A stretch of DNA of 64,000 bases from assembly GCA_003223135.1 (NCBI GenBank), contig QHXX01000029.1:11864-75863 (forward strand). Reading direction: 5' to 3'. This document shows positions 4,899-23,897 of the stretch, piece after piece. The notes below the pieces were generated by a model. That model made no database searches and had not been told where the DNA came from. It worked only from the letters and a program-made list of their open reading frames with translations. The position numbers and the translations under genes were made by a program. The stretch comes from Acidobacteriota bacterium (GTDB lineage Bacteria > Acidobacteriota > Polarisedimenticolia > Gp22-AA2). The stretch's first letter is position 1; each line of letters opens with the position of its first letter.

Positions 4899-4910
4899 GA
4901 GCAGGATCGG

Positions 4911-8041: not shown

Positions 8042-9792
8042 GCCGACCCTGGCGCCCACAGCTCGCTCCGGTGGACCTGGCCCTCGGCCTCATGGTGGGT
8101 CTCGCCGCAGTGGCGAGGTTTGCAGGCATCGGTTTCGGGCTCCCCCTCGTCAACTGCCGCCCCGACGAGCTGACCCTGATCGCGCACGCCATCGGCTTCT
8201 TCTCCGGAGATTTCAACCCGCATTTCTTCAGTTACCCTTCGCTTCTCATGTACCTCTATTACGGGATGTACAGGATTTATTACTTTCTGGGCCTGGCGTC
8301 GGGACGGTTCGGTTCATCTGGCCAGCTCATCGTCGAGTTTGCAAACGATCCGACGCGGTTCTTCTTGATGGGCCGGGCCGTTTCGGGACTTCTGGGCACC
8401 CTCTCGGTGGTTCTGACCTACCGGCTGGCTGCGCGCTTCTTCGACACGAGCGTCGCGCTGATCTCCGGTTTATTTCTGGCCTTCGCCTACCTGCATGTCC
8501 GGGATTCACATTTCGCGACGACCGACGTGCCAGCGACCTTTTTCATCCTCTGCTCCTATGTCTGGATTGCGAAGGCGTTTGAGGCACCCTCGGTCCGGGC
8601 CTACCTCATGTCGGGAACGTTCGCGGGCATCGCCGCCTCCACCAAGTACCTGGGAGTGCTGATTTCGGTCCCCATGATGCTGGTTCATCTCAAGGATTGG
8701 AAAGAGGCCGGGTTCCGCCCTGGTCTTGCGTTGGATCGGAAGGTGTTCTGGTTCGGGGGCGCTCTCGTTCTCCTCTTTTTTCTTGGGACTCCCTTTTCGC
8801 TCGCGGAGCCGCTCAACGCCTTCAGGGATTTTCGCAGGGAGGCCCGGGCGGTCCTGGCGACAAGCGATCATGGTCACATTGGCTGGCTGTACCATTTGAT
8901 CGTCTCGCTGCGCCACGGACTCGGCCTGCCGCTGCTGCTGGCGTCGTTGGCCGGGTTCGTTCTGGCCTTTCGAGTGGATAAGAGAAAGGCGTGGGTCCTG
9001 CTGAGCTTCCCGCTCGTCTACTACGCACTCATGGGCAGGGGTTACAGGAACTTCACCCGTTACGCCGTCCCACTCGTGCCCTTCCTCTGCATCGCCGCCG
9101 GAGTGTTCGTCGGTTCTCTGGGCGCCATGGTGGCACGCCGATGGACCCCCCGCGCGCGCGCCCCGTTGCTGAGCCTGATGTGCTGTGCGGTCCTCCTGCC
9201 GGGGCTGGTCAAGATTGTCGGCTTCGACGCCTTGCTGCTTAAGACGGATACCCGGGTATTGGCCAGACGCTACGTTGAACGCGCAATCCCGCCAGGGACG
9301 TCGGTGTGCGTTGTTCCCCTGACATTCAGCGAGCTTGATCTCTACCCGACCTCGGATGCGCTCACCCGTCAGATGCAGGCGGAGCCACCCGGGAGCATAC
9401 GGCGGTGGATGGCCTCCGCCAGGCTCGAGGCCCTCCAGGCCAAAGCGCGTCCCGGATACAGGCTGTGGGAGTACGATTCCCAGTCGGGAAGGTTCGTCAT
9501 GGACGGAAAGGTCATGGACTCCCTTCCCGACGTTCTCATCCTGGAGGAGTCCCCGCTGCCCGTGCTCAAGCGAATGGCGCCCGAGGAGGTCAGGAATCTC
9601 GCGGCCAGGAAATACACGCTCACGAAGTCGCTGCTCGCCTACGACGATCTCTCTGGGAGCGTATTCGACGAGCGGGACATCTTCTACATGCCGCTGGAAG
9701 GCTTCCGTAATTTTTCCCGGCCCGGCCCCAACATTCATATCTACGAGCGGCGTGAAGAGGCGCCGGTCTCCGATGACGGCCCCCGCCAATGA
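8038..9792 (+). CDS. GT-C (ArnT/PMT_2-like) membrane glycosyltransferase
   Basis: RPDE loop, FNPHFFSYPS, SHFATTDVP, STKY, RYAVPLVP. Confidence 0.82.
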   Translation: MSRPWRPQLAPVDLALGLMVGLAAVARFAGIGFGLPLVNCRPDELTLIAHAIGFFSGDFNPHFFSYPSLLMYLYYGMYRIYYFLGLASGRFGSSGQLIVEFANDPTRFFLMGRAVSGLLGTLSVVLTYRLAARFFDTSVALISGLFLAFAYLHVRDSHFATTDVPATFFILCSYVWIAKAFEAPSVRAYLMSGTFAGIAASTKYLGVLISVPMMLVHLKDWKEAGFRPGLALDRKVFWFGGALVLLFFLGTPFSLAEPLNAFRDFRREARAVLATSDHGHIGWLYHLIVSLRHGLGLPLLLASLAGFVLAFRVDKRKAWVLLSFPLVYYALMGRGYRNFTRYAVPLVPFLCIAAGVFVGSLGAMVARRWTPRARAPLLSLMCCAVLLPGLVKIVGFDALLLKTDTRVLARRYVERAIPPGTSVCVVPLTFSELDLYPTSDALTRQMQAEPPGSIRRWMASARLEALQAKARPGYRLWEYDSQSGRFVMDGKVMDSLPDVLILEESPLPVLKRMAPEEVRNLAARKYTLTKSLLAYDDLSGSVFDERDIFYMPLEGFRNFSRPGPNIHIYERREEAPVSDDGPRQ

Positions 9793-11363
9793 CCGACGCC
9801 GCCGCAGGGCGATGGGCGTGGCTCGTGCTGCTGCTCTGCCTCGCAGTCCTCCTGGTTTCTCAGCAGGGGAGTCTGGGGTTCCAGCCGGGCCACCATGGCT
9901 ACCTCACTTCCATGGGACTGGCCATGGCGAAAAACCTGAGCCCGGAAAACAGATTCCTCATGTTCACCCAGGTCGCAATCGACGAAGGGGGCAACAAGGT
10001 CTTCAGTCCGCACAATCGCTTCCCCGTCCTTTCCTACGTGCTCATCAAGGGGGCCATGTCTCTCTCCGGGGGCGATCTCGATGCGCAAATGCGATGGGCC
10101 CACCAACTCATGAACCTGTTCTTCTGGGGGGGACTCGTCTGCAGCTACCTCCTCATCCGGCAAATGTCCGGAAGACCGCTGCTGGCCATTGCGGTCTGCC
10201 TCATCAGCTATTCCTCCTACTACATGCAGTATTACAACGACATGATATTCAACGACATTCCGGCTCTCTTCGGGTTTCTGCTGGTCCTCCTCGGGGTTGT
10301 CTCGTGGCGGCACACCGGCTCAGGTCAACTTCTTTACATCGGGATCTTCGTGGCGATAGCACTGGGTTGGCAGGCCTACGCGGTTCTGGTCTGCTGGACC
10401 ACGCTGGAAGCTCTGTGGATTGCGAAACGCTCCTGGCGGAACCGAGTGGTCGCCGTGACAACGATTGTCCGCCACCCCGCCACGCGCGCGCTGGCGGTTG
10501 GTGTCTTGTGGGGTGGTTCGCTTTTGAGCTTCAATCTCTACAACGAATCCCGGGTGATGCACCAGGACATCGGAGATCTGCCTTCGGCGCGCTCCATCAA
10601 GTTCAGGCTGGGCCTGGCAGGAGGTGCGGCGGACTTTCCGACCTACCAGGATCTGCGATGGCGCCCGTTTTTGGAGATGCAAGTGCGGAGAATCCTCAAG
10701 GCAGCCGTCCCGACCCGTCCCCTGCACGGCCTGCTGGACAAGTTCAGTGACCGGATGCAAGGACGCGGCGGCCTGAGACTCGTGGGCCTCCTGATTCTGC
10801 CGGTGGTGGTCTTCTCCTATTTCTTCTGGCGGCTCTTCCGTGAGAGCGCGGATCGACTCGCGCTCCTCGCAGTCTTCCTATCGGGGCTCTTCTGGACGAT
10901 CCCCATGAAGTACTTCACGGCCTTCCACGATTTTCAGGGTATCTTCTATGTGGGCATGGTCCTTGTCATTTACCTCGCGATGCTGCACAGACTGCCTGAA
11001 AATGCTCTCGGTGCGGTCGTGGGTCTGGCCATGGTGGTGTTCGTCTATTCCAATGCCGACCTGAATCGGCAGAAGGCCGAGGGATCGAAATATTTCGCCT
11101 CCTACACCCGCGATTTCGCGAAGATCGACGCTCTGATCGGCAACGGAAGGCGAATCCAGGCGGGGACCGATGACAAGGAGTTCGAGCAGGAGAGTAAGCA
11201 GCTACGCTTCTACATGGCCGGCGATTACTATTCCGACGCGAGCCACGCGGAGTTCATCCTGTCCAAGAACAGGGCGCATAACGACTCCTTGATGACGCCC
11301 GACAACGAAGCCGTGTTTCTCTTCCGCAACGCGGCCGGTCGCCCGCTTCAGCCGGCGGAGTAG
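9789..11363 (+). CDS. Polytopic membrane protein, probable GT-C-fold enzyme
   Basis: Many TM helices, HNRFP, DMIFNDIP; coupled to upstream gene; the usual acidic pair after TM1 is not obvious. Confidence 0.6.
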   Translation: MTDAAAGRWAWLVLLLCLAVLLVSQQGSLGFQPGHHGYLTSMGLAMAKNLSPENRFLMFTQVAIDEGGNKVFSPHNRFPVLSYVLIKGAMSLSGGDLDAQMRWAHQLMNLFFWGGLVCSYLLIRQMSGRPLLAIAVCLISYSSYYMQYYNDMIFNDIPALFGFLLVLLGVVSWRHTGSGQLLYIGIFVAIALGWQAYAVLVCWTTLEALWIAKRSWRNRVVAVTTIVRHPATRALAVGVLWGGSLLSFNLYNESRVMHQDIGDLPSARSIKFRLGLAGGAADFPTYQDLRWRPFLEMQVRRILKAAVPTRPLHGLLDKFSDRMQGRGGLRLVGLLILPVVVFSYFFWRLFRESADRLALLAVFLSGLFWTIPMKYFTAFHDFQGIFYVGMVLVIYLAMLHRLPENALGAVVGLAMVVFVYSNADLNRQKAEGSKYFASYTRDFAKIDALIGNGRRIQAGTDDKEFEQESKQLRFYMAGDYYSDASHAEFILSKNRAHNDSLMTPDNEAVFLFRNAAGRPLQPAE

Positions 11364-11429
11364 CTCGATGGCATGGTCCGAGGCGCCATAGAGTTTCGTA
11401 TCCTCGCTCCCCTGGCTTAACCGAATCGG

Positions 11430-12899
11430 ATGAAGAACGATCGCTGGCTCTGGGCCATCCTCCTTCTGGGAGCGGCCGTTCGCCTGGTCGGTCTCGGAGA
11501 GCGCAGCCTTTCCTACGACGAGTGTCAGCAGTTCTGGGCTTCGCAGGGGAACGTATTAATCTCGAATCGCGTGATCACGCTGGATCCGCCGGGGTTCGCA
11601 GGCCTGCTCCACCTCCACGCCGCCGCCGGCCGAAGTGAGGCCTGGCTGCGTCTCCTGCCCTGTCTCTTCGGCATCCTCGCGATCGCCGCCGTCTACCGTC
11701 TTGGCATCGCAGGCACCGCCAACCGATGGACGGCCCGGGCGGCTGCCTTCTTCATCGCCCTTGCGCCCTACCCCATTCGATATTCCCAGTCCCTTCGCGT
11801 CTACAGCCAGGCGATTTTCTTCGCCGCCGTGCTCGTCGCGGCGTTCTTGCAGGTGAAGGACGGGGGAGACCGGCGGGGATGGAGCGACGTGCTCATCCTG
11901 GGATTCTCCACCTTCGCGGCCCTCCTCTCCGTCTATGGCAGTGTCTGGCTCATCTTGATGATGGCGATCCTCCTGGCCTGGCGCGGCCGCCGGGAAAGAG
12001 GGCGGGCGTGGCGGCGGGCCGTGATCGGTCTGGCAGCGGGAACCATTCTTTGCATTCCCTGGTATCTGCTCTCCCTTCCGGTGCAGCTCACCGAAGGGAC
12101 GCCGTCTTCCTTCTACGAGGACAAGTTCCTTCCCCTTTCCTTTCTGCCCGCCGTCGGCTTCCTGATCCGGGGCACCTCGGATCTCTTCGCCTTCCTTTCT
12201 TTCATCCACCCGGGGACCGGCTTTCTCTTCGGCGCCCTGGCGGTCCTCGGGATGGTCCGCCTCCGCCGACAGCGGTGCTGTGCAGACCTGCAGGTCGTCT
12301 TCCTGGGGAGTCTCGTGTCAGCGGCCGCCGCCTCCGCCTTTCGCCTCTATCCGTACGGGGGAACCCGGCAGATGCTGTTCGCCTCACCCGTCTTCTATGT
12401 TCTGGGCGCGGCCGGCATCGAGTCGCTGCGCCATCATCTTCGAGGAGTGCCGGCCGTCGTCGTCCTGATGGCCATCGCCGGTGGCTCCGGGATTTTCCTC
12501 TACCGGTACCACACCGAGCCCGGGGGCCAGGAAATGCGCCCGGTGATTCGGTCGCTGGAGGTGGCGGCCCGTCCCGAGGACCGGATTCTGGTCAACAAGG
12601 ACGCGCTGCCCCAGTTCCGGTTCTACTACCGCGGGAGCCGGGTCCGGGTGGTGGAGGGCAAGGAATCGGTGATTCGAGACTATATCTCCGAGGTGAATCG
12701 TATGATGGCCACCGCCCCCCAATCGCGATGGTGGCTTGTCTTCTCTCACGGCTGGAGCGCCGAGCGGCGTGGGGAGCTGGCAGCAGTCGATTCCCGTTTC
12801 CTGGCCGGGGAGCGATTCGAGGCCTACCGTGCCGCCGCCTACCTTTTCATGCCCCGGACCGGTTCCCCGCCAGCACCCGGGGACGGAGAAGAGCCGTGA
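11430..12899 (+). CDS. GT-C (GT39/PMT_2-like) membrane glycosyltransferase
   Basis: SLSYDE loop, DPPGF, WLRLLP, YSQSLRVYS. Confidence 0.82.
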   Translation: MKNDRWLWAILLLGAAVRLVGLGERSLSYDECQQFWASQGNVLISNRVITLDPPGFAGLLHLHAAAGRSEAWLRLLPCLFGILAIAAVYRLGIAGTANRWTARAAAFFIALAPYPIRYSQSLRVYSQAIFFAAVLVAAFLQVKDGGDRRGWSDVLILGFSTFAALLSVYGSVWLILMMAILLAWRGRRERGRAWRRAVIGLAAGTILCIPWYLLSLPVQLTEGTPSSFYEDKFLPLSFLPAVGFLIRGTSDLFAFLSFIHPGTGFLFGALAVLGMVRLRRQRCCADLQVVFLGSLVSAAAASAFRLYPYGGTRQMLFASPVFYVLGAAGIESLRHHLRGVPAVVVLMAIAGGSGIFLYRYHTEPGGQEMRPVIRSLEVAARPEDRILVNKDALPQFRFYYRGSRVRVVEGKESVIRDYISEVNRMMATAPQSRWWLVFSHGWSAERRGELAAVDSRFLAGERFEAYRAAAYLFMPRTGSPPAPGDGEEP

Positions 12900-14905
12900 C
12901 GGGGCCCCGGCGTCCATTGCTATGGGGTCTGGTGGTTCTCGTCGTCGCCCTCGCTCTTTCGCTTCTCCCGGGGGAAATGGCCGGCACGACGGGTGGCGCG
13001 CTCCTCGGACTGTTTCTCCCCGGTTACGCCCTCTTGTTGTGCCTCGGAACCCGTGGCCGACTTGACTGGCCGCCTGATGTCCTCGACTGCGTTGCGGCCT
13101 CGCTTGCGATTACCCCGCTTGCTCTCCGCTTGGCCTCTGTCATCCTTCCATTCGACCGACTTCACGTGCTCGGTGTGTTGGCCGGGGTCACACTAGGGAT
13201 GCTTGTCCTCGGCGCGCTTCGCCCCAGAGTCGCCCTCACGCCCTCCCGCAGAAAGACTCCGCTCGCCGTCCTCGCGATCGTGATCGCGACGCTGCTTTTC
13301 CTGGCGCCGACTTTGGCTATCGGCCCGACCCCCGAAGGCGGGGAGAGCCGGGTCAAAGGGTGGGACCTGAATAACCATTTGGCGATCGCCGAGTCGATCG
13401 CGACCCGGGGACTGCCTCCGCTCAACCCGTTCCTGGCGACTGATTCCCCCTTCTATTACCACACCTTCTTTCATATCCTCCTGGGAGCGGTGCTGGTTGT
13501 CGCCGGGAATGGTGCCCATTCCTACCTGCTCATTTCCTTGCTCACGCTCCTGCTCGCTGCCGTCTTCCTCTCCACCTTCTACCGGGCAGTCTCGGAGTTC
13601 ACGGGCGACGACCGTGTCGCCCTCTTCTCGCTGCCACTGGTCAGTCTGGTCGGCGGTTTCGACATGATTCCGATGGCCGTCAAGGCCTTTTTCGAAAAGG
13701 ACGGAATCCATTCCCCAGTGGACTTCTTTCTGCGGCACTGGAACGTGGATGGCTGGGTTTCCAACCGGGGAATGCTGGTGCCCAGCTTCTTCGCCAGCTT
13801 CTACTGGGTGCCCCATGCGGTCGCGGCCGTGGTGGTCTTCCTGCTGGCTCTGCTCTACCTCAGGAGGACCGAGGCCGACACCGGGGCCGTGGCCGCGGTC
13901 TTCCTGGCCTCGATGGCCGGTTACAACGGATACGTGGCCCTGGCCGGCGCGGCGACCCTGATTCTGCTGCGGGGCATCGATCTCGTGAGGTTCCTCGCCT
14001 CCGGTTTCCGGACCGGCCGCGGCATTCTCCTCCGCAGCGCGCTGGTTGGAGGTTTTGCGATTCTCCTCAGCCTGCCGGTCCTGAACCTTTATGTCGGCCA
14101 CGAAGGAGACACAGCCAAGTTTCGTTGGGCGCGGCCGGGGCCGCTCGCTCCCCTACAGATCATCCTGGAATTTGGACCGGCCCTCATCCTGGGCCTGGTG
14201 GGGCTGGCTATGTCCCGGCGTCAAGTAACCGAAAAGGGGGGAACGATCCCCTTTCTCTTGATGGGTGTCGTAAGCCTGCCCCTCATCTGCCTGGTGGCCT
14301 CCACGGGCGAAAACAATGACCTGGCGATGCGGATCTCCATGCTCCTGTGGCTGTGCCTTGCCGTTTTCAGCGGCGTCGCCCTGAATCGCATTCTGGAGGT
14401 CTTCCCGGATCCGGCGTCCGCGACTTGGACGGACCGGATCGCGTCGCTGGCCGCGCTGGCGCTCGGCTTTCTCTCGGTTGTCTGGTTCGCAATCGGTGCC
14501 GCGGTGGCCAAGCCGACCCTTCCCGCCGACGAGGTGGCGGCTGGCCGATGGGTCAGGACCCATATCGCGTCGGGTCTACTGGTGCAGGGGTCTCCGCTTC
14601 GGAGTAGTCCTGAGCTGGTCTACCTGACCGGCCATCCAGCGGTCCTCTCGGACACCTGGGCCGCCGGACTGTTCTACTCGGAGCCGGAAGACTTTGCGCG
14701 CCGGATGACCTCCTTGCGCGAGGCCTTTTCGAACCCCGATCCCTCAATCACCTGTCCCATCCTGCGGTCGCTGGGCATTGCGGTCCTTGTGGTGGGCCCG
14801 CCGGAGGAGCGGGATTTTCCACTCCTCGTCCGCCCCAACCCGTGGCCGTGCCTCGCAGAGGCCTATCATCGAGGCACCTATCGGGTCTACCGGCTGTTGC
14901 CCTGA
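12896..14905 (+). CDS. Large polytopic membrane protein, probable GT-C-like transferase
   Basis: GTG at 12896 overlaps the upstream TGA; FLPGY, WDLNNH, PPLNPF, FYYH, WVPH motifs and a soluble C-terminal domain. Confidence 0.7.
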   Translation: MTGPRRPLLWGLVVLVVALALSLLPGEMAGTTGGALLGLFLPGYALLLCLGTRGRLDWPPDVLDCVAASLAITPLALRLASVILPFDRLHVLGVLAGVTLGMLVLGALRPRVALTPSRRKTPLAVLAIVIATLLFLAPTLAIGPTPEGGESRVKGWDLNNHLAIAESIATRGLPPLNPFLATDSPFYYHTFFHILLGAVLVVAGNGAHSYLLISLLTLLLAAVFLSTFYRAVSEFTGDDRVALFSLPLVSLVGGFDMIPMAVKAFFEKDGIHSPVDFFLRHWNVDGWVSNRGMLVPSFFASFYWVPHAVAAVVVFLLALLYLRRTEADTGAVAAVFLASMAGYNGYVALAGAATLILLRGIDLVRFLASGFRTGRGILLRSALVGGFAILLSLPVLNLYVGHEGDTAKFRWARPGPLAPLQIILEFGPALILGLVGLAMSRRQVTEKGGTIPFLLMGVVSLPLICLVASTGENNDLAMRISMLLWLCLAVFSGVALNRILEVFPDPASATWTDRIASLAALALGFLSVVWFAIGAAVAKPTLPADEVAAGRWVRTHIASGLLVQGSPLRSSPELVYLTGHPAVLSDTWAAGLFYSEPEDFARRMTSLREAFSNPDPSITCPILRSLGIAVLVVGPPEERDFPLLVRPNPWPCLAEAYHRGTYRVYRLLP

Positions 14906-14911
14906 GAGACC

Positions 14912-15800
14912 CTATCGTACTTCGGCAGTGGATCCGACGACCTCGGCGGTCAAGGGTTCGCTCGTGGCGCCGCGGACCGTAGCACGATCGAAGTGGAGGT
15001 CGGATCTTCCGCGTCCCAGCGCCAGGAAATCGATGAGAAGGATAGCACCCGATCCGTTGAATGTTCCGGAGGAGCGGACGAACGACAGCCCGACGGCCAG
15101 ATCTCCGGGCCTGTCGGGATTCACTGAAGCCAGGAAGATCGGCTGGAGAGAGCGGCCGTTCAGTGCCGGTCCGGTTCGGGTCCCGACGTACTGAAGAACC
15201 CCCGGATCGAATTGGAGGTGAAATGGAACGCTCGTGACATCACGCGCCCCGGTCAGGGCGACCGCAACCGAGATCGTCTCGCCTCGGGAGACTGCATGTC
15301 GATCGGGGGCCAGGGTCAGGCGCAGGGATTGAGCGTCCTGGGGCTCCGGAACAGTCGCTTCACTCTCGGATGGTTGGGATTCATCGTTCTGTCCGGGACG
15401 GTCGTGATTCGGAGCCGTCGACTGCGGACCCGTTGCAGGCATCGACGGAGAGCCCGGGAAGCTGCCGCCTGCGATCCAACCGATCGAAGCCACCTGGTTC
15501 ACAGCGGGCTGCGGGTGCTCCTGCGGCGACGCAGCCGCCGGCGCGCGCGAAGCCGAGCCCACCCCCTGCTCCATCGGCGATGCTCCGATCCGTGGTTGCG
15601 ATCGCCGCAAGTTCAGCCGCCGGGTAGAACGAGGGCGGCACGGGCGCCCCGGTCATCATGGCGAGCGTGGTCGGGGAGGTCGGAAGGCCCCCGGAGGTCG
15701 GCTGCCTGTAGTGATAATAGTCCCAGAGAGGGAGGGCCAGGAGAGTTCCGGCCATGAGCGCGGCCCCCGCCATGATGGACCAGTAGATGATTCGGCTCAT
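14912..15800 (-). CDS. Membrane-anchored cohesin-domain protein with Pro-rich linker; frameshifted near 15570-15600
   Basis: N-terminal TM segment is in ORF 15381..15800; cohesin-like beta-sandwich (VPFHLQFDPGVLQY, GSGAILLIDF) is in ORF 14912..15610, a different frame. Confidence 0.7.
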
Positions 15801-16387
15801 CAGGGCACCTGAACGACCCCGCCGTGTCCGGGGCCGAAGGAGGCGGCGACGACGCTACCGTTCTCATCGATGATCTGGTTGTTGATCGAGCCGCCCGTGT
15901 TGAAGTCGACGGTGCCCACGCCGCTGGCCACCTTGACGAAATGGAACGTAATGAGACTCGCGCTGCCTACGGCGGAGACGCTCGAATCGGGCCTGAAGAG
16001 CGTTGCGCTGGCCACGATATCCCCCGGCGAAGGATTCGTGACGAAGAACTGCGGTGGGATCGGCGGGCTACCCTGTTGGAGAAGAGGGCCCGGGCTGAAG
16101 CTCTGATACTCGATCACCGAGGACGGATAGTTGATTTCGAACCCGACCGTGAAGATCCCCGAAAGGTTCGTCACCAAAACGCTGATGTCGACCGAATCGC
16201 AGGAACTGATCGGCGACAGGAGATAGACATCCCCCGCTCCCGGGGAGCCGATCGAGGGGGCGAAGGCGATCGGGGTACACGGCATCACGTCGTCTCCGTT
16301 GCCCTTGCCGCCCTTGCATCCCAGTCCGAGCACAAGGAGCAGCACGCCGAGAGGAGCGACGCCGGTCAGCAGTCTTCTTCTGTTCAT
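15800..16387 (-). CDS. Lipoprotein with cohesin-like domain
   Basis: Lipobox LGLGC; VGFEINYPSSVIEYQSFSPGPLL and GSASLITFHF resemble cohesin strands. Confidence 0.7.
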   Translation of the reverse strand: MNRRRLLTGVAPLGVLLLVLGLGCKGGKGNGDDVMPCTPIAFAPSIGSPGAGDVYLLSPISSCDSVDISVLVTNLSGIFTVGFEINYPSSVIEYQSFSPGPLLQQGSPPIPPQFFVTNPSPGDIVASATLFRPDSSVSAVGSASLITFHFVKVASGVGTVDFNTGGSINNQIIDENGSVVAASFGPGHGGVVQVP

Positions 16388-17205
16388 GGACAGACCGCCA
16401 ACCGCTGACCGAGGTAACTCACGAGGATGTCAAGATCGGCGCCTCCCACGTCACCGTCGCCGTCCAGATCGGCACTCGCGATGTAGGCGGGATCGGAGCT
16501 CAGCGTGTTCCAGGCACGGGCGAGAAGATTCAGGTCGAACAGGTCGATCTTGCAGTCGCGGTTGATGTCCGCGGTCTTCACCACGGTCAGGGTGTTCGGC
16601 CTGCTTGCCATACCGCTGTCAGGGTTCGTGACGGACAGGGTCCTGGGCCCCAGGAGCGCAGAGGAGCTTACGGTGATCGACGCAGTCAAGTGGCCCGAGT
16701 CCATCAGTGAGGTTGGGCCGACGCTGATGTCGGCGCCCAATCCCACAGTAGCACCGCTCTGGAAATTGCTCCCGTTCACCTGGATGGTCTGGCTTCCGGA
16801 CTGCAGAATGTAAACCGACCCCGTACCAAGCTCGACGGCTTGACTGATGGTCGGCGTCAGCGTCGTCACCGTCGGCTGGACGGCGACTTCGTTCGAAGGC
16901 AAGCTCTCGTTCCCCGCGCGGTCGTAGGCGGTGACCACGAAGTAGTAGGTCGTGTTCGCTGCGAGGTTCGGGACCGAATAGCCGTTGACCGGGCCAACAT
17001 CGATGACGGGAAGGGTGTAACTGCGCGAAGCGGTGCCGAAGTGGATCCGATAGCCCGCCAGGTCCGATTCGAGGTTGGCGTCCCAAGCGAGACTGACCAC
17101 CGTACCCGCTTCGAGGATTCCAGTCGGCCATATCAAAAGGATTAGACCGATCAGGAATCCGGTCGAGCCGACCACCGACTGTAAGAGCCCGCGGTGAGTC
17201 GTCAT
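16384..17205 (-). CDS. Secreted Fn3 + Ig/IPT-like + dockerin protein
   Basis: Signal peptide; Fn3 (LAWDAN..LAGYRI..YYFVVTAYDRAGNES); duplicated Ca-binding loops ADINRDCKIDLFD and ADLDGDGDVGGAD. Confidence 0.85.
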   Translation of the reverse strand: MTTHRGLLQSVVGSTGFLIGLILLIWPTGILEAGTVVSLAWDANLESDLAGYRIHFGTASRSYTLPVIDVGPVNGYSVPNLAANTTYYFVVTAYDRAGNESLPSNEVAVQPTVTTLTPTISQAVELGTGSVYILQSGSQTIQVNGSNFQSGATVGLGADISVGPTSLMDSGHLTASITVSSSALLGPRTLSVTNPDSGMASRPNTLTVVKTADINRDCKIDLFDLNLLARAWNTLSSDPAYIASADLDGDGDVGGADLDILVSYLGQRLAVCP

Positions 17206-17263
17206 CGCCCCCCCTAGGCAGCCGGCAAAACGGCAGGCCGGAGACTGCGGACATATTGGTCAC

Positions 17264-17279
17264 TGCAAGCGGGCTGCCA
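17264..17279 (-). promoter_or_regulatory. Sigma-54 (-24/-12) promoter
   Basis: Minus strand TGGCAGCCCGCTTGCA; GG-N10-GC spacing, ~60 nt upstream of the dockerin gene start. Confidence 0.72.
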
Positions 17280-17343
17280 CCACCGATAGTGTTATGCCGC
17301 GATTCCTCCTTCGCAACCCTCTGATTCCAAATACTTCAACGCC

Positions 17344-17401
17344 TGTCGACATTTGGAGCATGGGCTGTCGGAGATGTGGCACCCTGTCAACGTAATCGAC
17401 A
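17344..17401. promoter_or_regulatory. Candidate enhancer-binding protein sites (TGT-N11-ACA type)
   Basis: TGTCAACGTAATCGACA at 17385-17401 and near-match TGTCGACATTTGGAGCA at 17344-17360, 65-120 bp upstream of the -24 box. Confidence 0.5.
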
Positions 17402-17689
17402 CTGACAATTTCGTGTCCTTCGCTGAGGACATCAGCGTAGATTAATTAGCTCACAGGACCTGGCGCCGCCAGGTGACAGATTGGCTCGGAGGTCGAAGAA
17501 TTGCCGTGCCGGTGAGCGCGCGATCGCGGGGTCCTGTTTGACACCCCCAGCGCGCTTTGGCTACCATCGCCTCGGCCATTCTCTCCAGGTCCCAGCAAGC
17601 GAGGCAGAAGGCCAGGAGCGGCCGCGGCCATCGGGGGCGCGAAAGATGATCGGCGCCCCGGGCTGGGTCGCCCGGAGCGTCCGTTCGGC

Positions 17690-17983
17690 GTGGGAAGAAA
17701 CGTCAGGCTGAGGTTGGAAAGCCGCATCGTCTACGTGGACCTGGTCCACGAGATGACCGAGGGGCTCGCCCGCAGGATCTGGACCCACACCTCCAACCCT
17801 CTCGACCGGGAGAACATCTTCCGCACGAGCGGCAGAGGCATCTTCTTCATGAAACATTTCGTCGACCGGGTCGAGTTCCAGCGCCGCCGGGGGCAGGGAA
17901 CCGAGGTCGTCCTCGAGAAAAAATTCGAACAGGCCGGCCGTGCCGGGCGCGGCGGCGAGGTCATCAAGCGGAGGAAGGGATGA
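17690..17983 (+). pseudogene. RsbW-like anti-sigma factor kinase with in-frame internal deletion
   Basis: N-terminus (LRLESRIVYVDLV) joined directly to NPLDRENIFRTSGRGIFFM...GTEV; N-box (EAxxNA) and G1 box (DxG) are absent. Confidence 0.72.
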
Positions 17984-18315
17984 AGGCCAACGCCAGGCAC
18001 CACGGGAAAGTCACCGTCGTCGACCTCTCCGGGAAGATTACCATCGGGGAGGGGGACATCAAGCTCCGCCAGGCGGTCAACTCGATTCTGGACGAGGGCC
18101 GCAAGAACGTCATCCTGAATCTGGGCGGCGTGTCCTACATGGACAGCGCCGGGATCGGCGAGCTGGTGGCCTGCTACAAGCGCGCCCGGGAGAAGGGCGC
18201 GGCCCTCAAATTGCTGAATCCCAACGGCAAGGTTCAGGATCTGCTCATCCTGACCAAACTTCAAGAGATCTTCGACATCTACCGCGACGAGCGCGAGGCG
18301 CTGGCCAGCTTCTAG
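17980..18315 (+). CDS. STAS-domain anti-sigma factor antagonist
   Basis: VSYMDSAGIGELV phosphorylation motif; 111 aa. Confidence 0.95.
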   Translation: MKANARHHGKVTVVDLSGKITIGEGDIKLRQAVNSILDEGRKNVILNLGGVSYMDSAGIGELVACYKRAREKGAALKLLNPNGKVQDLLILTKLQEIFDIYRDEREALASF

Positions 18316-18499
18316 CCGGGCCGGCGCCCGGCTCCCCGCCGGTGCGCGTTCTTTCCCTCTCTTGACGGCGCTCCCCCAGGAGGAGTATCTATGGTGTCCG
18401 ATCGGGGACGCCGCGACACCGCACCCCGTCATCCCGTGTCCCATTCCTCCCTGTCCTCCAGGTGTCGAGGCACGACCCACGATCTTGGAGGACCACCCT

Positions 18500-18868
18500 A
18501 TGACCGGACTGACCTGGTTGCGTCGTCGCGGGCCCTGGCACATCGAGACCCGCTCCATGGCCGACTGGCAGATCCTGCAGGTGCGAGGGAAATTCGTCTC
18601 GGGGGAGCCGCACAAGAGATTCCTTGAGGCGGCCGACGGCCTCCTGCAATCCGGAGCCCGGCGGGTCGTCGTCGACCTGACGGAGTCGCTCCTGGCCGAC
18701 GACAGCGTGGCCAGCGCGGCGACGGAGGTGTACCACAAGGCACGCGAGAAGGGGGTCGAGATCCGCTTCATCGTGCAGCCGGGCCAGGCGGGCGGCTATT
18801 ACCACATGGCCGGCCTGGAGATGACCATCCCCACCTTCTCGAGACTGAACGGCGCCATCGAGATCTGA
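18500..18868 (+). CDS. Divergent STAS-domain protein
   Basis: GGAGG SD before ATG 18500; RVVVDLT..ADDS STAS-like pattern. Confidence 0.7.
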   Translation: MTGLTWLRRRGPWHIETRSMADWQILQVRGKFVSGEPHKRFLEAADGLLQSGARRVVVDLTESLLADDSVASAATEVYHKAREKGVEIRFIVQPGQAGGYYHMAGLEMTIPTFSRLNGAIEI

Positions 18869-18881
18869 GCGTCATCTGGTC

Positions 18882-21430
18882 TCAGGCGAGCAGGCGCTTT
18901 TTCAGGTCGGCCAGGAAATTCAACGCCTGGATCGGCGTCATCTCCTCGATCCGGGCGCTGCGGATCTCCTCCAGGACCGGATCTTCTTCGGGGGCGAACA
19001 GGCCGAGCTGGGAGGGCGCGGGCGGGGTCCCGCCTTCGGCGGTCTCCGCCGCGCCGGGGGCCGCGCTCCCGGCACGGACCGTCCCCGCCGGCCCCGGAAG
19101 GCCGCGCCCGCGCGCCAGCTTCGGCCGGCCGTCGCGCGACAGCTCCTCGCGCTCCAGGTTCAGGAGCACCTCCCTGGCCCTCTCGATGACTTCGCGCGGC
19201 AGCCCGGCCAGCCGCGCCACCTGGATGCCGTAAGAGCGGTCGGCGGCACCCTCCAGGACGCGGCGCAGGAAGACGATGGTGTCGTTCCACTCACGCACCG
19301 CCATCGTCAGGTTGCAGACGCGCGGCTTGAGAAGCGCCAGCTCGATCATCTCGTGGTAGTGCGTGGCGAACATCGTTCGCGCCGCGACCGAAGGCGTGTC
19401 GTGCAGATACTCGGCGACGGACCAGGCGATCGACAGCCCGTCGAAGGTCGAGGTGCCGCGTCCGACCTCGTCCAGGAGAACGAGCGAGCGGACCGTGGCG
19501 TTATTGAGGATGTTGGCGGTCTCGATCATCTCCACGAGAAAAGTGCTCTGGCCCCGCGCCAGGTTGTCCGATCGACATCCATCAGGCAGTCGTTGGGGAC
19601 GAAGCGCTCGGTGTCGAGGAGTTGCTCGACCACCGGGTGGCGCCCCTCCACGATGCGCAGGCCGAGACTGTCGTCCACCTTCGGCCGCCGGTAGCCGTAC
19701 ACGGAGGCCGCTTCGGCAAAGGCCGCCAAGGCGTCGATCGTGGCGAGCGCCCGGCTCGTTGCGCCCAGGCGTGGCGCCGCGCGAGTCACCTCGTCGCGCA
19801 GGGCCACGAACAGTTCGTACTCCAGCGCTTCGATGCGCTCCTGGGCCGTCAGGACCTTGGCTTCGTACTCTTTCAGCTCGGGGGTGATGTAACGTTCCGC
19901 GCCGACCAGTGTCTGCTTGCGCTCGTAGTCGGCCGGCACGGACTTCCGATGCGCGTTGCTGATCTCGATGTAATAGCCGAAGACCTTGTTGTAGCGGACC
20001 TTGAGCGATGCGATCCCGGTGCGCTCGCGTTCGCGTGTCTCGATCGAGGCGAGGTAGGCGCGGCTGTCGCGCCTGATCGAACGAAGTTCGTCGAGCTCCT
20101 GCCGGTAGCCGTCGCGCAGCAGACCGCCTTCTCTGACGGTCGCGGGCGGATCGTCGGCGATCGATTCCTGAAGCCGCGCATGCAGATCGGCGAGCCCATC
20201 GAAGCCGGCCATGATCCGAGCCAGGGGCGGCGACGTCAGGGCCATGGAGAACGCGGCGATCTCCGGCAAAACCGCGAGCGAATCGCGCAACGCGACGAGG
20301 TCCCGTGCCGAGGCGGTGCCGAGAGAGCAGCGCGCCAGGAGGCGCTCGAGGTCGTGGATGTTCGCCAGGCGGGCGCGCAAGGCCGAGCGCTCGCCCTGCC
20401 GATCCAGGAGGAACTCGACCGCGTCCAGGCGCTCCGCGATCGCCCCGACCGACAGCAGCGGTCGCAAGACCCAGTCGCGCACGAGACGCCCTCCCATCGC
20501 CGTCTCGGTGCGATCGAGAATCGAAAGGAGCGTCCCGTCGCGCCCGCCGTCGCGCGTGTTCTCGGCCACCTCGAGCGTGCGCCGCGTGGTTGCGTCGAGA
20601 ACCATGGCCTCGCTCGGATGGTGCCAGACGACCCGCGTCACGTGCCTGAAGTCGGCCTTGTGGGCCTCCTGCAGGTAGTGCAGGAGCGCCCCGGCCGCGC
20701 CCACCGCCAGGTTCCGCCCCTCGACGCCGAACCCGGCGAGCGAGGCCGTCCCCAGGATCTCGTTCAGAAGCCGCGACGCGGCTTCGGTGCCGAGCGTCCA
20801 GCCCGGGACGGCATGGGCGAGCACGCCCTCGAGCAGCTCCACGGGGACGAGATTCTCGAGAGACGTTTCCTCGGGGTGCAGGATCTCGCGCGGCCGGAAC
20901 AGGGCCAACTGCGCCGCGAGGGAGTCGCCGGCCGAATGACCGCGATGCTCCGACAGTCGGAAATCGCCTGTGGACAGATCGAGATAGGCGCACCCGAAGC
21001 CGTCGCCCGCGCCGCCGCGTTCGGGGACCCCGGTGGCCTGGATGGCCGCGATGTAGTTCGGCTCGGAGGCCCGGAGCTGTGCCGGATCGGTGACCGTCCC
21101 GGGAGAGACGACGCGCGTCACGGCGCGTCTCACGATCCCTCTGGCGACGCGCGGGTCCTCCACCTGGTCGCAGATGGCGACCCGGTGCCCCTGACGGATC
21201 AGACGCGCCACGTACGAGTCGGCCGCGTGGTAAGGTACACCGCACATCGGCGCCTCGTTCTTCGTGCCCCGGCCTCGCGAGGTCAGGGTCAGTGACAGCG
21301 CCTTGGAGGCCAGTAGCGCGTCGTCGTAGAACATCTCGTAGAAATCGCCGAGGCGGAACATGAGGACGGCGTCGGGGTGCTGCGCCTTGATCGATCGGTA
21401 CTGCCGGAGCATCGGCGTGAGCGTGTCCAT
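18882..21430 (-). pseudogene. mutS: DNA mismatch repair protein MutS, interrupted by deletion + frameshift at ~19570
   Basis: TPMLRQY, GDFYEMF, GRHPVVE, then a different frame gives [40 protein letters not shown]; the Walker A segment is missing. Confidence 0.9.
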
Positions 21431-21438
21431 GGCGCTCC

Positions 21439-21467
21439 TTGACATTCGCAGGGCCCGCCATTATAAA
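21439..21467. promoter_or_regulatory. Overlapping divergent sigma-70 promoters (DUF4870 gene / mutS)
   Basis: Plus strand TTGACA-N17-TATAAA; minus strand TATAAT at 21465-21460. Confidence 0.6.
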
Positions 21468-21508
21468 ACAGCGTCTTCGATGTCCCGCGTCGCAGGAGTT
21501 CCTGCCCG

Positions 21509-21896: not shown

Positions 21897-22508
21897 ATGA
21901 GCGAGGCGATCCAGAGCGCCATGGCCGCCCACGCCTGGGCCGCGCTGCTTCTGGTCTTCCTCCTGGCCTGGCTCGAATACGTCTTCCCGCCCGTGCCGGG
22001 CGACTCAACCATGCTGTTCGGCTTTTTCCTGGCGGGCGCCGGCGCCCTTCCCCTGGCCGCGGTGACGGCGGCCGCCATGTCGGGGAGCGTGCTGGGCGCG
22101 CTGACGGCTTACTCCGTCGGGGCGCGCCTGGGGCGGTCCTATTTCTTCCTGCGGTCCGCGTGGGCGAGGGACGAGCTTGCCAGGGTCGAGGGCTGGTTCG
22201 GACGATTCGGGCCGCGACTCCTCACGATCAACCGCTTCATACCAGGGGTGCGCGGCTTTTTCCTGTACGCCGCGGGGATCGGTCGCGTCAGCCCGCGGCC
22301 GGTGCTCCTCTACTCGACGGCGAGCAATGCGCTGTGGGTGGGGCTCCTCGCCTGGGGAGGAACGAGTCTCGGAACGACCTGGGACGACGTGCGCGTCGTC
22401 TTCCGGCGCTATGTCTGGGGGATCGCCATCGTTGTCGGGGTGTACGCGGCCGTGACGATCGTGCGCGCCCGGCGAAGGCGCCGGGTCCTCCTCACGCCTT
22501 CTTCCTAA
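21897..22508 (+). CDS. DedA-family membrane protein
   Basis: EYVFPPVPGD, RFIPGVR motifs. Confidence 0.92.
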   Translation: MSEAIQSAMAAHAWAALLLVFLLAWLEYVFPPVPGDSTMLFGFFLAGAGALPLAAVTAAAMSGSVLGALTAYSVGARLGRSYFFLRSAWARDELARVEGWFGRFGPRLLTINRFIPGVRGFFLYAAGIGRVSPRPVLLYSTASNALWVGLLAWGGTSLGTTWDDVRVVFRRYVWGIAIVVGVYAAVTIVRARRRRRVLLTPSS

Positions 22509-23766
22509 TCTGCGCTTCGAGTTTCTTCAGCGTCTCCCGGCGGTCGGGCTGGTCCGGCCGCAACGCCAGAGATCGCCGCAAGTACTCCGCGGCCCGATCG
22601 AGCTGTCCCTTCTGCACGTAGGCCTGGGCGAGAGAATTGAACAGGGCGTGGTTCGGCGGGCCGGAACGCTCCGCGCGGTGGAAGTACTCCAGGGCCTTGT
22701 CCATTTCACCCTTGAGAGCGTAAGCGGTGCCCAGATTGAACAACGCCAGAGGGTGATCCGGCTTCAGCTCCAGGGCCTTCTGGAAGGCCGCAATCGCATC
22801 GTCGACCTTGCCCTGCTTCGCCTCGAGGCCGCCCAGGTTGATCTGGAACTGGGCCTCCTTTGGCGCCAGACCGACGGCGGTGTGGAAGGCCATCGTCGCC
22901 TTGTCGTATTTCCCCTCGCGCAGGTAGACCTGCCCGAGCCAGTCGTGGTGGATCGCGGAATCCTTCTTCTTCTCCAGACTGGCCTCGAGCAGGCGCTCGA
23001 GCTTCATGATCCTGGCCGGGTCCTGCGTCGTCTGGTAGAACACGTAGAGCCGGCTCATCGGCTCCAGCGCGGTCGGGTCGTAGTAAAGCGCCTCCAGGTA
23101 TTTCTGCTCGGCCTCGTCCTTCTTTCCCTCCGCCTCCAGGACCTGGCCCAGGGCGGCATGATAGAGCGCCTCCTTCGGGTCGGCCACGAGCGAGCGCTCG
23201 GCCAGAGCGCGCGCCGAGGCGGGAAACCGGCGCCGCAGGTAGTCGACGACGGCGTTGAACACGACACGGGGCTCCGGGCTGCTCACGATCAGGCCGTCGT
23301 CCGCGATACCCCGGGTGATCAGGTCGGCGGACACCAGCGGGGCCAGCCGGCGGTCGATCTGCGGCGACAGGATCTCGTCGGCGTTGAATCCGCGCGCCGC
23401 CGCGATCACGGCCGCCTTGAGGCGTTCCTCGATGTAGACCCGGGGTTCGCGCCCGCTGCGGCCACGATGAAAGGTCAGCACGTCGCTCGCGGAGGCGCGG
23501 CCGGCGATCCGCACCGGAAGTTTAAAGCCGGCGTGGTCCTTGGTGACGACGTCGACCGGACCGTCGAGAACCACCGGTGTGCTGTCATACACGTACAGGC
23601 GGTGGTACAAGGGGACGCGCAGGTGCAGGCCGGAGCCGAGCGGCAGGACCGATCCACCCGGCCCCTCGCGCACGGCGAAGTCCCCCGCCGGGACGTGGGC
23701 GACGTTGGCCGCCGCCAGCGCCACGAGCGCGACGAGCATCCACGACCATCTGCCCTTGAGACGCAT
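22492..23766 (-). CDS. Exported SPFH/band-7-like + tetratricopeptide repeat protein
   Basis: N-terminal hydrophobic segment, GLHLRVP and VVTKD (SPFH-like), multiple TPRs in the C-terminal half. Confidence 0.75.
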   Translation of the reverse strand: MRLKGRWSWMLVALVALAAANVAHVPAGDFAVREGPGGSVLPLGSGLHLRVPLYHRLYVYDSTPVVLDGPVDVVTKDHAGFKLPVRIAGRASASDVLTFHRGRSGREPRVYIEERLKAAVIAAARGFNADEILSPQIDRRLAPLVSADLITRGIADDGLIVSSPEPRVVFNAVVDYLRRRFPASARALAERSLVADPKEALYHAALGQVLEAEGKKDEAEQKYLEALYYDPTALEPMSRLYVFYQTTQDPARIMKLERLLEASLEKKKDSAIHHDWLGQVYLREGKYDKATMAFHTAVGLAPKEAQFQINLGGLEAKQGKVDDAIAAFQKALELKPDHPLALFNLGTAYALKGEMDKALEYFHRAERSGPPNHALFNSLAQAYVQKGQLDRAAEYLRRSLALRPDQPDRRETLKKLEAQIRKKA

Positions 23767-23897
23767 GTCCCGAGATGTCCCCGGTGGTTCCCGCAACACC
23801 GCGACCGGAGCGGCGCGTGAGCGAGTCGCGAGTCTCACCCGCGCCCCGCGCAGAGTCAACGAGCGCGCCGGAAGGCCGTGGGTGTACGATCGGCCCC

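Follow-up and report, generated by a model that had tools for sequence, protein, structure and literature searches.

A three-gene operon from a diderm soil bacterium of the class Candidatus Polarisedimenticolia (Acidobacteriota) was identified in the 64-kb stretch of DNA that we analysed (hereafter the window), and we think it likely that the operon forms a self-contained, non-cellulosomal cohesin-dockerin anchoring cassette. Its genes, here named g1, g2 and g3, encode a dockerin protein, a lipoprotein with a predicted cohesin fold and a cohesin on a long tether, respectively (Table 1). The pairing of cohesin with dockerin is among the strongest natural protein-protein glues. To our knowledge, work on these modules has been almost confined to the cellulosomes of monoderm Firmicutes, while non-cellulosomal copies are widespread. 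The domain identities, the coupling of the genes, their synteny and the conservation of their promoter were all established by computation and are described below.

Table 1. Features of the g1-g2-g3 operon and its upstream region (window positions).
Feature	Positions	Strand	Description	Basis
g1	16384..17205	-	273 aa; signal peptide, Fn3, Ig-like domain (CoaZ-type), type I-like dockerin; C-terminal VCP	Pfam, NCBIfam, AlphaFold2, alignment A2
g2	15800..16387	-	195-aa lipoprotein with cohesin-fold domain	lipobox, AlphaFold2 model, Foldseek, Atlas
g3, 5' part	15603..15800	-	N-terminal membrane anchor, P-[LVI]-W-D juxtamembrane motif, start of Pro/Ala/Ser-rich tether; 66 codons	
g3, break point	15602..15603	.	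194 letters absent from the window and present in near-identical public contigs; cause of the g3 frameshift	
g3, 3' part	14912..15602	-	remaining tether and C-terminal cohesin module	Pfam Cohesin
Sigma-54 type -24/-12 promoter, TGGCAG-N5-TTGCA	17264..17279	-	TGGCAGCCCGCTTGCA; begins 74 nt ahead of the g1 start codon (ATG)	
Inverted repeat TGTCA-N13-TGACA, GATTACG core	17385..17407	-	candidate upstream activating sequence, ~120 nt upstream of the -24 element	
Inverted repeat TGTCC-N8-GGACA	17414..17431	-	candidate activator site; kept in the window, L021 and L022	

The three genes lie on the minus strand of the window and their stop and start codons overlap, as ATGA at the g1/g2 junction and as TGATG at the g2/g3 junction, in agreement with an earlier reading of the DNA (the sequence-only reading) that had described them as tightly coupled. 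That reading had also stated that the operon has no catalytic modules, and Pfam and NCBIfam profile searches of g1, g2 and g3 identified no CAZyme, no CBM and no catalytic module. The combination that defines a cellulosome, a multi-cohesin scaffoldin with dockerin-bearing carbohydrate-active enzymes or a CBM, was not found, there being one cohesin per protein. The operon is probably a case of non-cellulosomal cohesin-dockerin anchoring in a diderm, a known kind of system in a new form. Our literature search found no paper describing the operon, and a 2009 review by Peer et al. may list such modules.

The description of g1 as a secreted Fn3-Ig-dockerin protein agreed with profile scores above the cut-offs for its domains: 30.3 bits for fn3 (Pfam cut-off 25), 38.2 bits for NCBIfam CoaZ_rpt_PGGG in the middle domain (residues 133-208; cut-off 30) and 34.6 bits for Dockerin_1 (PF00404; residues 212-265; cut-off 22.9), the dockerin scoring 38 bits in the genome-level search. 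The dockerin contains two candidate Ca-binding loops of the D-x-[ND]-x-D...D type, DINRDCKIDLFD and DLDGDGDVGGAD. Its helices in the AlphaFold2 model of g1 (pLDDT 88.3) are at residues 222-230 and 255-264, one after each loop, as is the case in type I dockerins. Of 19 longer relatives with the same Ig-dockerin tail, 13 carry DUF11 repeats, which suggests that the cargo type is one of non-enzymatic surface proteins.

The second gene had been read as encoding a cohesin-like lipoprotein. Its lipobox, LGLGC, was confirmed, with Cys24 invariant in all 37 aligned sequences, and the fold assignment stood as well, while the profile evidence did not: g2 scored 17 bits against Pfam Cohesin (PF00963), under the cut-off of 24.1, and only one of 49 database homologues had a precomputed Cohesin match. 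NCBIfam had no match for g2 or g3. All of the matches listed in a Foldseek search of the PDB with the AlphaFold2 model of g2 (pLDDT 89) were cohesins (E ~1e-5; target-normalised TM 0.5-0.7), rather than the generic Ig or CBM folds that would have spoken against the sequence-only reading, and the Atlas clusters nearest to g2 carry the label Cohesin. Based on these models and searches, g2 is predicted to be a cohesin at the level of the fold.

Modelling of the g1 dockerin with the g2 cohesin gave an ipSAE of 0.92, compared to a best value of 0.01 among three controls; since many cohesin-dockerin complexes have been solved, this score may reflect likeness to those complexes rather than binding of the g1-g2 pair. 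Among solved complexes 58 of 80 attained the ipSAE mark, as did 2 of 110 mismatched pairs, counts that are only a rough guide here. Contact agreement between the runs was at least 91% and the pLDDT of the partners at least 82. The model supports binding of the g1 dockerin to the g2 cohesin and the interface that it predicts.

In the window, g3 is divided between two ORFs in different frames, one with the transmembrane anchor (15381-15800) and one with the cohesin (14912-15610). The cohesin part scored 28.2 bits against Pfam Cohesin, over the cut-off, and had 993 relatives at E <= 0.001 in a representative library. The anchor, the tether and the cohesin of the proposed "membrane-anchored cohesin on a long Pro/Ser-rich tether" were therefore recovered, but not as an intact gene in the window. 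In relatives, g3 is a single ORF with a real length of ~337-420 aa (3 of the 10 ORF calls extend further upstream than this), and a database protein 98% identical to g3 (P0170) is an intact 360 aa. Three DNA runs, X1, X2 and X3, each from a different study, have one contig apiece with 194 extra letters between positions 15602 and 15603; the run that best covers the window may be its own source sample. With these letters the window g3 has 361 codons, in agreement with P0170. As the extra letters restore a 360-aa g3, the break is best explained as an assembly gap or a variant. The mutS gene, 4 kb from g3, is broken likewise in the window (at 19571|19572), and its 163 missing letters are present in X1-X3 and one RNA-library run (four studies). 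Both insertions restored the reading frame exactly. Dips in depth over 15784-16446 in X1, and a lack of cover over 15563-16225 in the RNA-library contigs X18, were noted in this region and not counted as findings.

Sigma-54 promoters have the consensus TGGCAC-N5-TTGCW, with GG at -24 and GC at -12. The window has no match to TGGC-N7-TTGCW other than TGGCAGCCCGCTTGCA, the element that had been read as a GG-N10-GC promoter, which is also one of 22 sites in the 3.7-Mb genome that match TGGCA-N6-TTGCW, compared to 12 for the reversed control pattern. Its TGGCA...TTGC columns are invariant across all 10 aligned family upstream regions, and 15 of 21 loci, window included, have TGGCA-N6-(T/C)TGC ahead of g1. 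The six loci with no exact match are L025, L031-L034 and L038, the last of which has AGGCA where the others have TGGCA. The palindromes reported upstream were found as two inverted repeats, of which TGTCA-N13-TGACA is exact in L021 and, by alignment, partly kept in L022, L023 and L024. Words resembling GTAAC or GATTAC recur upstream of g1 in the class-level loci, an observation that we treat as a lead only.

The genome encodes rpoN (Sigma54_DBD, 217.8 bits) and has 24 matches to Sigma54_activat, none of them on the contig of the window. In 6 of 10 class-level loci the operon has as its neighbor a two-component pair of the NtrC type (REC-Sigma54_activat-HTH_8 and PAS-HisKA), with Pfam checked for two of the six. 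The conservation of the element, the rpoN gene, the activators and the adjoining NtrC-type genes strengthen the original reading of the g1 promoter as sigma-54-dependent, which is a prediction from sequence. The alternative of a sigma-70 promoter was rejected, as no sigma-70-like site was found on the minus strand upstream of g1 and the two sites found were on the plus strand. We also discarded the X18 contigs as a source of expression evidence; on g1 they have 62 differences in 808 letters and thus come from a relative, and contigs as such can show neither transcription nor transcript starts.

The sequence-only reading had named co-occurrence of the three genes in relatives as a check on its proposal, and the g1-g2-g3 order was kept in all 10 long family loci. 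Adjacency of g1 and g2 was observed in all 14 short family loci and in 18 of 20 long loci; for the class-level loci among the latter the count was 8 of 10. The remaining two loci, L031 and L032, have a g1-like gene and no g2-like neighbour, and their genomes (G036 and G050) had no match to the g2 family at E <= 1e-8. None of the 20 loci has kept, beside the operon, the HATPase_c_2, STAS and mutS genes that precede it in the window. The suggestion that the convergent GT-C array could glycosylate the operon products fared poorly: convergent glycosyltransferase genes lie beside the triad in only 3 of the 20 loci (L021-L023), all from the same genus, and a conserved functional link to the array was rejected.

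Comparable cassettes were found elsewhere in the genome and the phylum. In the same genome, the gene for an S8 subtilase whose tail resembles a dockerin lies at C31 ahead of genes for a g2-like lipoprotein, a g3-like tethered cohesin and a sigma-54 activator; a search for a sigma-54 site upstream of this cassette gave one-mismatch matches only (8 found, 3.7 expected), from which nothing is claimed. A g2-like gene directly follows the gene of a larger dockerin protein in 3 of the 10 loci with such genes. Among 10 loci from other acidobacterial classes, four have the gene of a dockerin protein immediately ahead of that of a g2-like lipoprotein; two of these dockerin proteins are GDSL lipases, another is an FG-GAP protein and the fourth is a repeat protein. 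The sequence-only reading had called the operon a candidate for an undescribed system; it is not unique, there being sister cassettes with a protease, lipases and repeat proteins. A second Dockerin_1 protein of the genome, encoded on contig C158, has DUF11 repeats and an Ig-dockerin tail 54% identical to that of g1. The genome has at least five cohesin modules, those of g2, g3, the C31 pair and the C145 secretin (TPR-STN-Secretin_N-Secretin), which ends in a tether and a Cohesin domain (29.4 bits) and whose gene is followed by a prepilin-type gene. The cohesin of the secretin is nearer to that of g3 than to that of g2 (70.8 versus 32.9 bits with HMMs made here). Many ORFs of ~750-930 aa across the phylum also gave hits to the cohesin portion of the g2 profile.

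Other explanations for the operon were considered. The cohesin-like and dockerin-like folds might belong to independent envelope proteins, for instance Ca- or carbohydrate-binding beta-sandwiches, that share an operon and do not interact. The score of g2 under the Pfam cut-off is consistent with this, as is the fact that, among the many non-cellulosomal cohesin and dockerin modules, almost none is known to have a demonstrated partner or a role. We nevertheless regard a lack of interaction as very unlikely, since the g1-g2 complex model is far above its controls and the adjacency of dockerin and cohesin recurs with unrelated cargo domains. Decay of the locus is hardly credible. The window g3 is out of frame, and if the mutS break 4 kb away were real the strain would be a mutator, both of which would fit a true frameshift and a cassette on its way out; yet the letters missing from the two genes are present in near-identical public contigs and put both back in frame, and a database protein with 98% identity is intact.

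Two further readings were weighed. In one, g2 and g3 would be a general docking platform for several dockerin proteins, such as the C158 protein, and g1 would be one client or adaptor. This we judge to be unlikely: although the tail of the C158 protein, the number of cohesin modules in the genome and the many large proteins with a g1-type tail in relatives are all in its favor, a dockerin gene has a g2-like gene as its immediate neighbor in the window, at C31 and in many other loci, which points to cognate pairs. In the other, the dockerin would be an address tag that steers g1 and other proteins to the cohesin-tailed secretin for export, with g2 and g3 as periplasmic holding or hand-over stations and not final anchors. 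The existence of the C145 secretin with its adjacent prepilin-type gene, the closeness of its cohesin to that of g3 and the large ORFs in the phylum with a match to the cohesin part of g2 are consistent with such a role, but the secretin gene is not linked to the operon, and we consider this reading quite improbable.

Of the known systems, the type II cohesin/X-dockerin pairing of the Clostridium thermocellum cellulosome (CipA X-Doc; SdbA, OlpB and Orf2p; PDB 2b59, 3kcp and 4fl4) shares with the operon a beta-sandwich directly before a two-helix dockerin of the Ca-binding type; that dockerin docks onto the cohesin of an envelope anchor, as is predicted for g1 and g2. The type II cohesins 4u3s and 2b59 were among the best Foldseek matches of the g2 model, and the two best matches of the g1 model were CipA Coh-X-Doc chains (4fl4_L and 3kcp_A), at whole-model TM-scores so low (~0.2) that the likeness to the X module is a lead and not membership. 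In contrast to C. thermocellum, the host here has two membranes, and anchoring would rely on a lipoprotein and on a membrane helix with a Pro-rich tether instead of SLH domains; the operon has no scaffoldin, CBM or enzyme and is predicted to be under sigma-54 control. Cohesin folds outside cellulosomes are also found in Archaeoglobus fulgidus (2xdh; rank 4 among the g2 model matches) and in the GH84/GH33 modules of Clostridium perfringens (2jh2, rank 8; 2o4e, 2vo8 and 2w1n). In those cases the module is built into an enzyme or protein of an archaeon or a monoderm, whereas each cohesin of the operon is a dedicated small envelope-anchored protein encoded beside its presumed partner.

The architecture of g3 resembles that of the periplasm-spanning proteins of the TonB/TolA type, in which a long Pro-rich spacer links a membrane helix at the N-terminus to a globular binding domain at the C-terminus. 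In g3 the C-terminal domain is a cohesin; no sequence relation was found, and no ExbBD or TolQR genes are nearby. Within the same genome the C145 secretin likewise has a cohesin on a long Pro-rich tether, but fused to an outer-membrane channel and encoded apart from the operon. Cellulosome-like sets have been proposed from genomes of Cloacimonadota, a diderm candidate lineage, where signal-peptide proteins that end in dockerins, including an S8 peptidase, are described and cohesin proteins are inferred to hold them at the cell surface (PMC8542988). The anchor in that proposal is a single giant scaffoldin that combines tandem cohesins with CBMs and a C-terminal domain of the T9SS type (PMC8542988), as opposed to the single-cohesin lipoprotein and TM anchors, cognate gene pairs and non-catalytic cargo of the operon.

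Together, these data led us to propose the following model for the anchoring cassette. An NtrC-type activator would turn on the sigma-54 promoter, which would drive the three translationally coupled genes. The g1 protein would be exported via its Sec signal peptide, and its Fn3 and Ig-like beta-sandwiches would precede a Ca-binding dockerin that the Ig-like domain abuts in the manner of the X module of type II X-dockerins. The dockerin would plug into the cohesin of the lipoprotein g2 and would probably also fit that of g3, which would be held in the inner membrane by a single N-terminal helix and would present its cohesin on a Pro-rich tether whose ~190 residues could span the periplasm. As a result, a non-catalytic Fn3-Ig protein would be fastened to the envelope, most likely as an adhesion factor or as a matrix or scaffold element. 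The localisation of the three proteins, g1-g3 binding, the calcium dependence and the biological role are all inferred here, and g1, g2 and g3 may all be in the periplasm, in which case "surface display" would be the wrong picture.

We speculate, tentatively and as a somewhat unlikely extension of this model, that cohesin-dockerin pairs are a general address system of the diderm envelope in Acidobacteriota. Stations with one cohesin each would lie at three levels, namely a g3-type inner-membrane anchor on a periplasm-spanning Pro-rich tether, a g2-type lipoprotein and the tail of a secretin. They would capture dockerin-tagged cargo, such as Fn3-Ig adhesin-like proteins, DUF11 repeat proteins, S8 proteases and GDSL lipases, and either relay it from the Sec exit to the outer-membrane channel or fix it in the envelope. 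The operon would be the minimal, sigma-54/NtrC-switched form of such a system.

The operon represents a compact, conserved and testable diderm system, in which a dockerin protein is encoded together with two single cohesins that differ in their anchors, with a clear promoter and, in relatives, an adjoining regulator. It also provides candidate partners for the cohesin-tailed secretins of Acidobacteriota. More broadly, the recurrence of cassettes in which a cargo-dockerin protein is paired with a cohesin lipoprotein, with different cargos, suggests that this way of fastening proteins to the envelope is a general one in a phylum that is dominant in soils.

The three genes lie on the minus strand at 14912-17205, and their stop and start codons overlap at both joints: ATGA between g1 (the Fn3-Ig-dockerin gene) and g2 (the cohesin-like lipoprotein gene), and TGATG between g2 and g3 (the membrane-anchored, tethered cohesin gene). 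The tight coupling proposed in the sequence-only reading was thus borne out. So was its description of g1 as a secreted Fn3-Ig-dockerin protein, as the hydrophobic N-terminus is followed by an fn3 and a Dockerin_1 domain, whose Pfam scores of 30.3 and 34.6 bits exceed the cut-offs of 25 and 22.9, with an NCBIfam "choice-of-anchor Z" repeat domain between them (residues 133-208; 38.2 bits, cut-off 30).

Coordinates of the operon, its upstream elements and related features
Feature	Position	Strand	Description
Membrane-protein (GT-C) array	4821-14905	+	six large membrane-protein genes in a row; converges on g3
g3, 3' ORF	14912-15610	-	232 aa, different frame from 5' ORF; C-terminal Pfam cohesin, 28.2 bits (cut-off 24.1)
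g3, 5' ORF	15381-15800	-	139 aa, membrane helix at start
g2	15800-16387	-	195 aa; lipoprotein, lipobox LGLGC
g1	16384-17205	-	273 aa; N-terminal hydrophobic signal sequence
Sigma-54-type promoter element	17264-17279	-	TGGCAGCCCGCTTGCA; begins 74 nt upstream of g1 start codon
Palindromes upstream of g1	17385-17407 and 17414-17431		both kept in nearest relatives
Paralogous cassette, contig C31	L043 (G000:C31) 5129-14571	-	S8 subtilase, 1934 aa, first
Secretin, contig C145	L042 (G000:C145) 1098-3548	+	TPR, STN, Secretin_N and Secretin domains

In the AlphaFold2 model of g1, built from 38 aligned sequences (pLDDT 88.3), a signal helix leads into two beta-sandwiches, at residues 36-109 and 119-209, and the dockerin forms two helices. 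The model's best two Foldseek PDB matches were Coh-X-Doc chains of Clostridium thermocellum CipA and the others were generic tandem Ig/Fn3 structures (Fabs, RbmA, intimin), all with low TM-scores. Two loops of the dockerin, DINRDCKIDLFD and DLDGDGDVGGAD, are of the Ca type. Across the alignment, a Cys pair at residues 218 (part of RDC in Ca loop 1) and 272 (part of the C-terminal VCP) was kept in family-level g1 proteins and absent from most of those from other families of the class. This pair could form a disulfide clasp closing the dockerin; it would resemble the clasp of the Ruminococcus flavefaciens ScaA dockerin, which is reported to be non-covalent (PMC3821032).

The lipobox Cys24 of g2 was invariant in all 37 aligned homologues. 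Against Pfam Cohesin, g2 scored 17 bits, below the cut-off of 24.1. Most of its 49 database homologues had no name, those named by their source were all "hypothetical protein", and one of the 49 carried a precomputed Cohesin match. However, the Foldseek PDB matches listed for the g2 model (pLDDT 89) were cohesins throughout, including type I and type II cohesins, the non-cellulosomal 2xdh of Archaeoglobus fulgidus and 2jh2 of Clostridium perfringens, and the protein Atlas placed g2 with acidobacterial clusters labelled cohesin. Given these structural matches, the outcome named in advance as fatal to the proposal (generic Ig/CBM folds) does not hold for g2, and its identification as a cohesin-like lipoprotein stands.

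To model binding we chose the pair conserved across the class; the input was g2 residues 38-195 (the cohesin, aligned in 37 rows) and g1 residues 203-273 (the dockerin, aligned in 38 rows), along with two Ca ions. This gave a complex score (ipSAE) of 0.92, the best of three controls reaching 0.01, with at least 91% contact agreement between runs and a partner pLDDT of at least 82. Among solved complexes, 58/80 met the score mark, as did 2/110 mismatched pairs; these counts apply only roughly here. On the dockerin side the predicted interface comprised residues 217-234 and 258-268, and on the cohesin side residues 79-83, 110-133 and 167-177. In the model, therefore, the two domains look like a competent cohesin-dockerin pair; because many such complexes have been solved, a passing score speaks for resemblance to a competent pair rather than for binding.

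The third gene was more complicated. A membrane helix and a cohesin were both present, as had been proposed, but in the window they are split over two frames. In ten relatives g3 was a single ORF with a real length of ~337-420 aa (three of the ten ORF calls extend further upstream), encoding an N-terminal helix, a P-[LVI]-W-D motif whose W-D was present in nine, a long Pro/Ala/Ser-rich linker and a cohesin. The database protein P0170, 98% identical to g3, is intact at 360 aa. We compared contigs of four public runs with window positions 14900-21500. In three DNA runs, each from a different study, a single contig had an additional 194 letters at 15602|15603 and showed 0-3 further differences from the window. 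An additional 163 letters at 19571|19572, inside mutS (18882-21445, minus strand), were present in these three runs as well as in an RNA-library run, four studies in all. In the window mutS is in two frames joined at that point, an assembly gap of the kind also present in g3. The MutS_V match begins at profile position 51, the first 50 positions of domain V, the part with the Walker A loop, being absent from the window. With the 194 letters, g3 reads as 66 codons plus 885 nt, or 361 codons, in agreement with P0170; with the 163 letters, the mutS frame is restored at 2727 nt. Because the inserts restore both frames, two short stretches are probably absent from the window's assembly and g3 would be intact in the population. 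A minority deletion variant of g3 may nevertheless exist, since the window itself may derive from one of the runs. Intact g3 joins its membrane helix to a C-terminal binding domain through a Pro-rich spacer of ~190 residues, which could be long enough to span the periplasm.

The genome assembly comprises 3.7 Mb in 158 contigs and is 92% complete; those database relatives that are named belong to Candidatus Polarisedimenticolia, Acidobacteriota. Matches to g1 were found in 54 of 61 related genomes, a tally that takes in generic Fn3 matches and the unpublished genomes G045 and G023. In all 14 short family loci (L007-L020, 1.5-kb flanks) g2 directly followed g1, and g3 was then present wherever the flank extended far enough. 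The longer set comprised 20 stretches of 13 kb, ten from the family (excluding G014, G009, G003 and G019 on account of short contigs) and ten from other families of the class, picked among near full-length g1-like matches of the 61-genome search. The g1-g2-g3 order was kept in 10/10 of the long family loci, confirming the expected co-occurrence. Across all 20, a g2-like lipoprotein adjoined g1 in 18, with none beside g1 in L031 and L032; the tethered g3 was confined to the family among the loci inspected. Profile matches to g2 (E <= 1e-8) occurred in 38 of 201 sampled Acidobacteriota genomes, G045 included.

Upstream of g1, the proposed GG-N10-GC promoter and palindromes were both recovered. 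TGGC-N7-TTGCW matched once in the window with 0.5 expected, which is not significant alone, and TGGCA-N6-TTGCW gave 22 sites in the genome, the g1 element among them, against 12 for the reversed control. Conservation is the stronger argument: the element lay at a constant distance in 10 of 11 family loci including the window (L025 has none) and was also found in L029, L030 (with CTGC), L035, L036 and L037, giving 15/21 loci, with an AGGCA-N6-TTGC variant in L038. TGGCA and TTGC were invariant blocks across ten aligned upstream regions, and no sigma-70-like site was found on the minus strand upstream of g1. The genome encodes rpoN and 24 sigma-54 activator-domain matches, none on the window's contig. 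Six of the ten class-level loci have two regulatory genes directly adjoining g1-g2, one for a PAS-HisKA-HATPase kinase and one for a REC-Sigma54_activat-HTH_8 regulator (domains Pfam-checked for L029 and L036). The word CAGATCCGT(A/T)(A/C)C recurred upstream of the promoter in L029, L035 and L036, which are of different families with an adjoining NtrC-type regulator, and GTAAC/GATTAC-like words were seen upstream of other g1-like genes and in the window repeat at 17385-17407. This recurring word may be the regulator's binding site.

The array converging on g3 had been suggested to glycosylate the operon products. Its glycosyltransferase character was real in part, with PMT_2 above the Pfam cut-off in 6491-8041 and 8038-9792 and weak, below cut-off, in 11430-12899; ahead of it lie genes for a sulfatase, a GDSL hydrolase and a polysaccharide deacetylase. 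We dropped the glycosylation link because synteny with the triad was limited to same-genus genomes (3/20 loci). Divergent from the operon, 17690-18868 (plus strand) encodes a short HATPase_c_2 protein of the anti-sigma kinase type, a STAS protein and a 168-aa ORF with no Pfam match. From its domains the group looks like a partner-switching module; it was not kept beside the triad in relatives. Further along, 22492-23859 (minus strand) encodes a 455-aa protein with an SPFH/Band_7 domain and many TPR repeats.

Other contigs of the genome carry related proteins. Ig-like, MopE and TSP3 repeats are found in the C31 subtilase, whose tail reads as a degenerate dockerin, with no Pfam Dockerin_1 match; after the subtilase come genes for a g2-like lipoprotein, a g3-like tethered cohesin, a small membrane protein with a Gate domain and a sigma-54 activator. 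A C158 protein, truncated at the contig end, combines DUF11-like repeats with an Ig-dockerin tail sharing 54% identity with the g1 tail, and DUF11 repeats were present in 13 of 19 longer database relatives having this tail. The C145 secretin has a C-terminal Cohesin domain (29.4 bits) on a Pro/Thr-rich tether, and a prepilin-type N_methyl gene comes after it. This secretin could offer the dockerin proteins of the genome a third place to dock. For larger dockerin proteins of relatives, a g2-like gene came next in three of ten loci (L047, L048 and L052; L051 ends at a contig edge). In other acidobacterial classes, a dockerin-ending protein (two GDSL lipases, one FG-GAP protein and one repeat protein) lay directly upstream of a g2-like lipoprotein in 4/10 loci, two of which had a second cohesin protein on the other side.

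Among the papers listed by full-text literature searches none dealt with such an operon, though the Peer et al. 2009 review may include related modules, and a term search of part of a paper on a sulfate-reducing acidobacterium gave no mention of cohesin or dockerin domains. For Cloacimonadota, likewise a diderm lineage, a cellulosome-like complex has been proposed (PMC8542988).

Together, these data support the core of the original interpretation, a sigma-54-controlled, self-contained cohesin-dockerin cassette. Its two cohesins may, as conjectured there, sit one per membrane. Most simply, the operon reads as a cassette of cargo plus anchor, in which the secreted cargo would carry a dockerin tag and the cohesin anchors for it would be encoded alongside. 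Because this cargo is a non-catalytic Fn3-Ig protein, its role is most likely in adhesion, matrix or scaffold.
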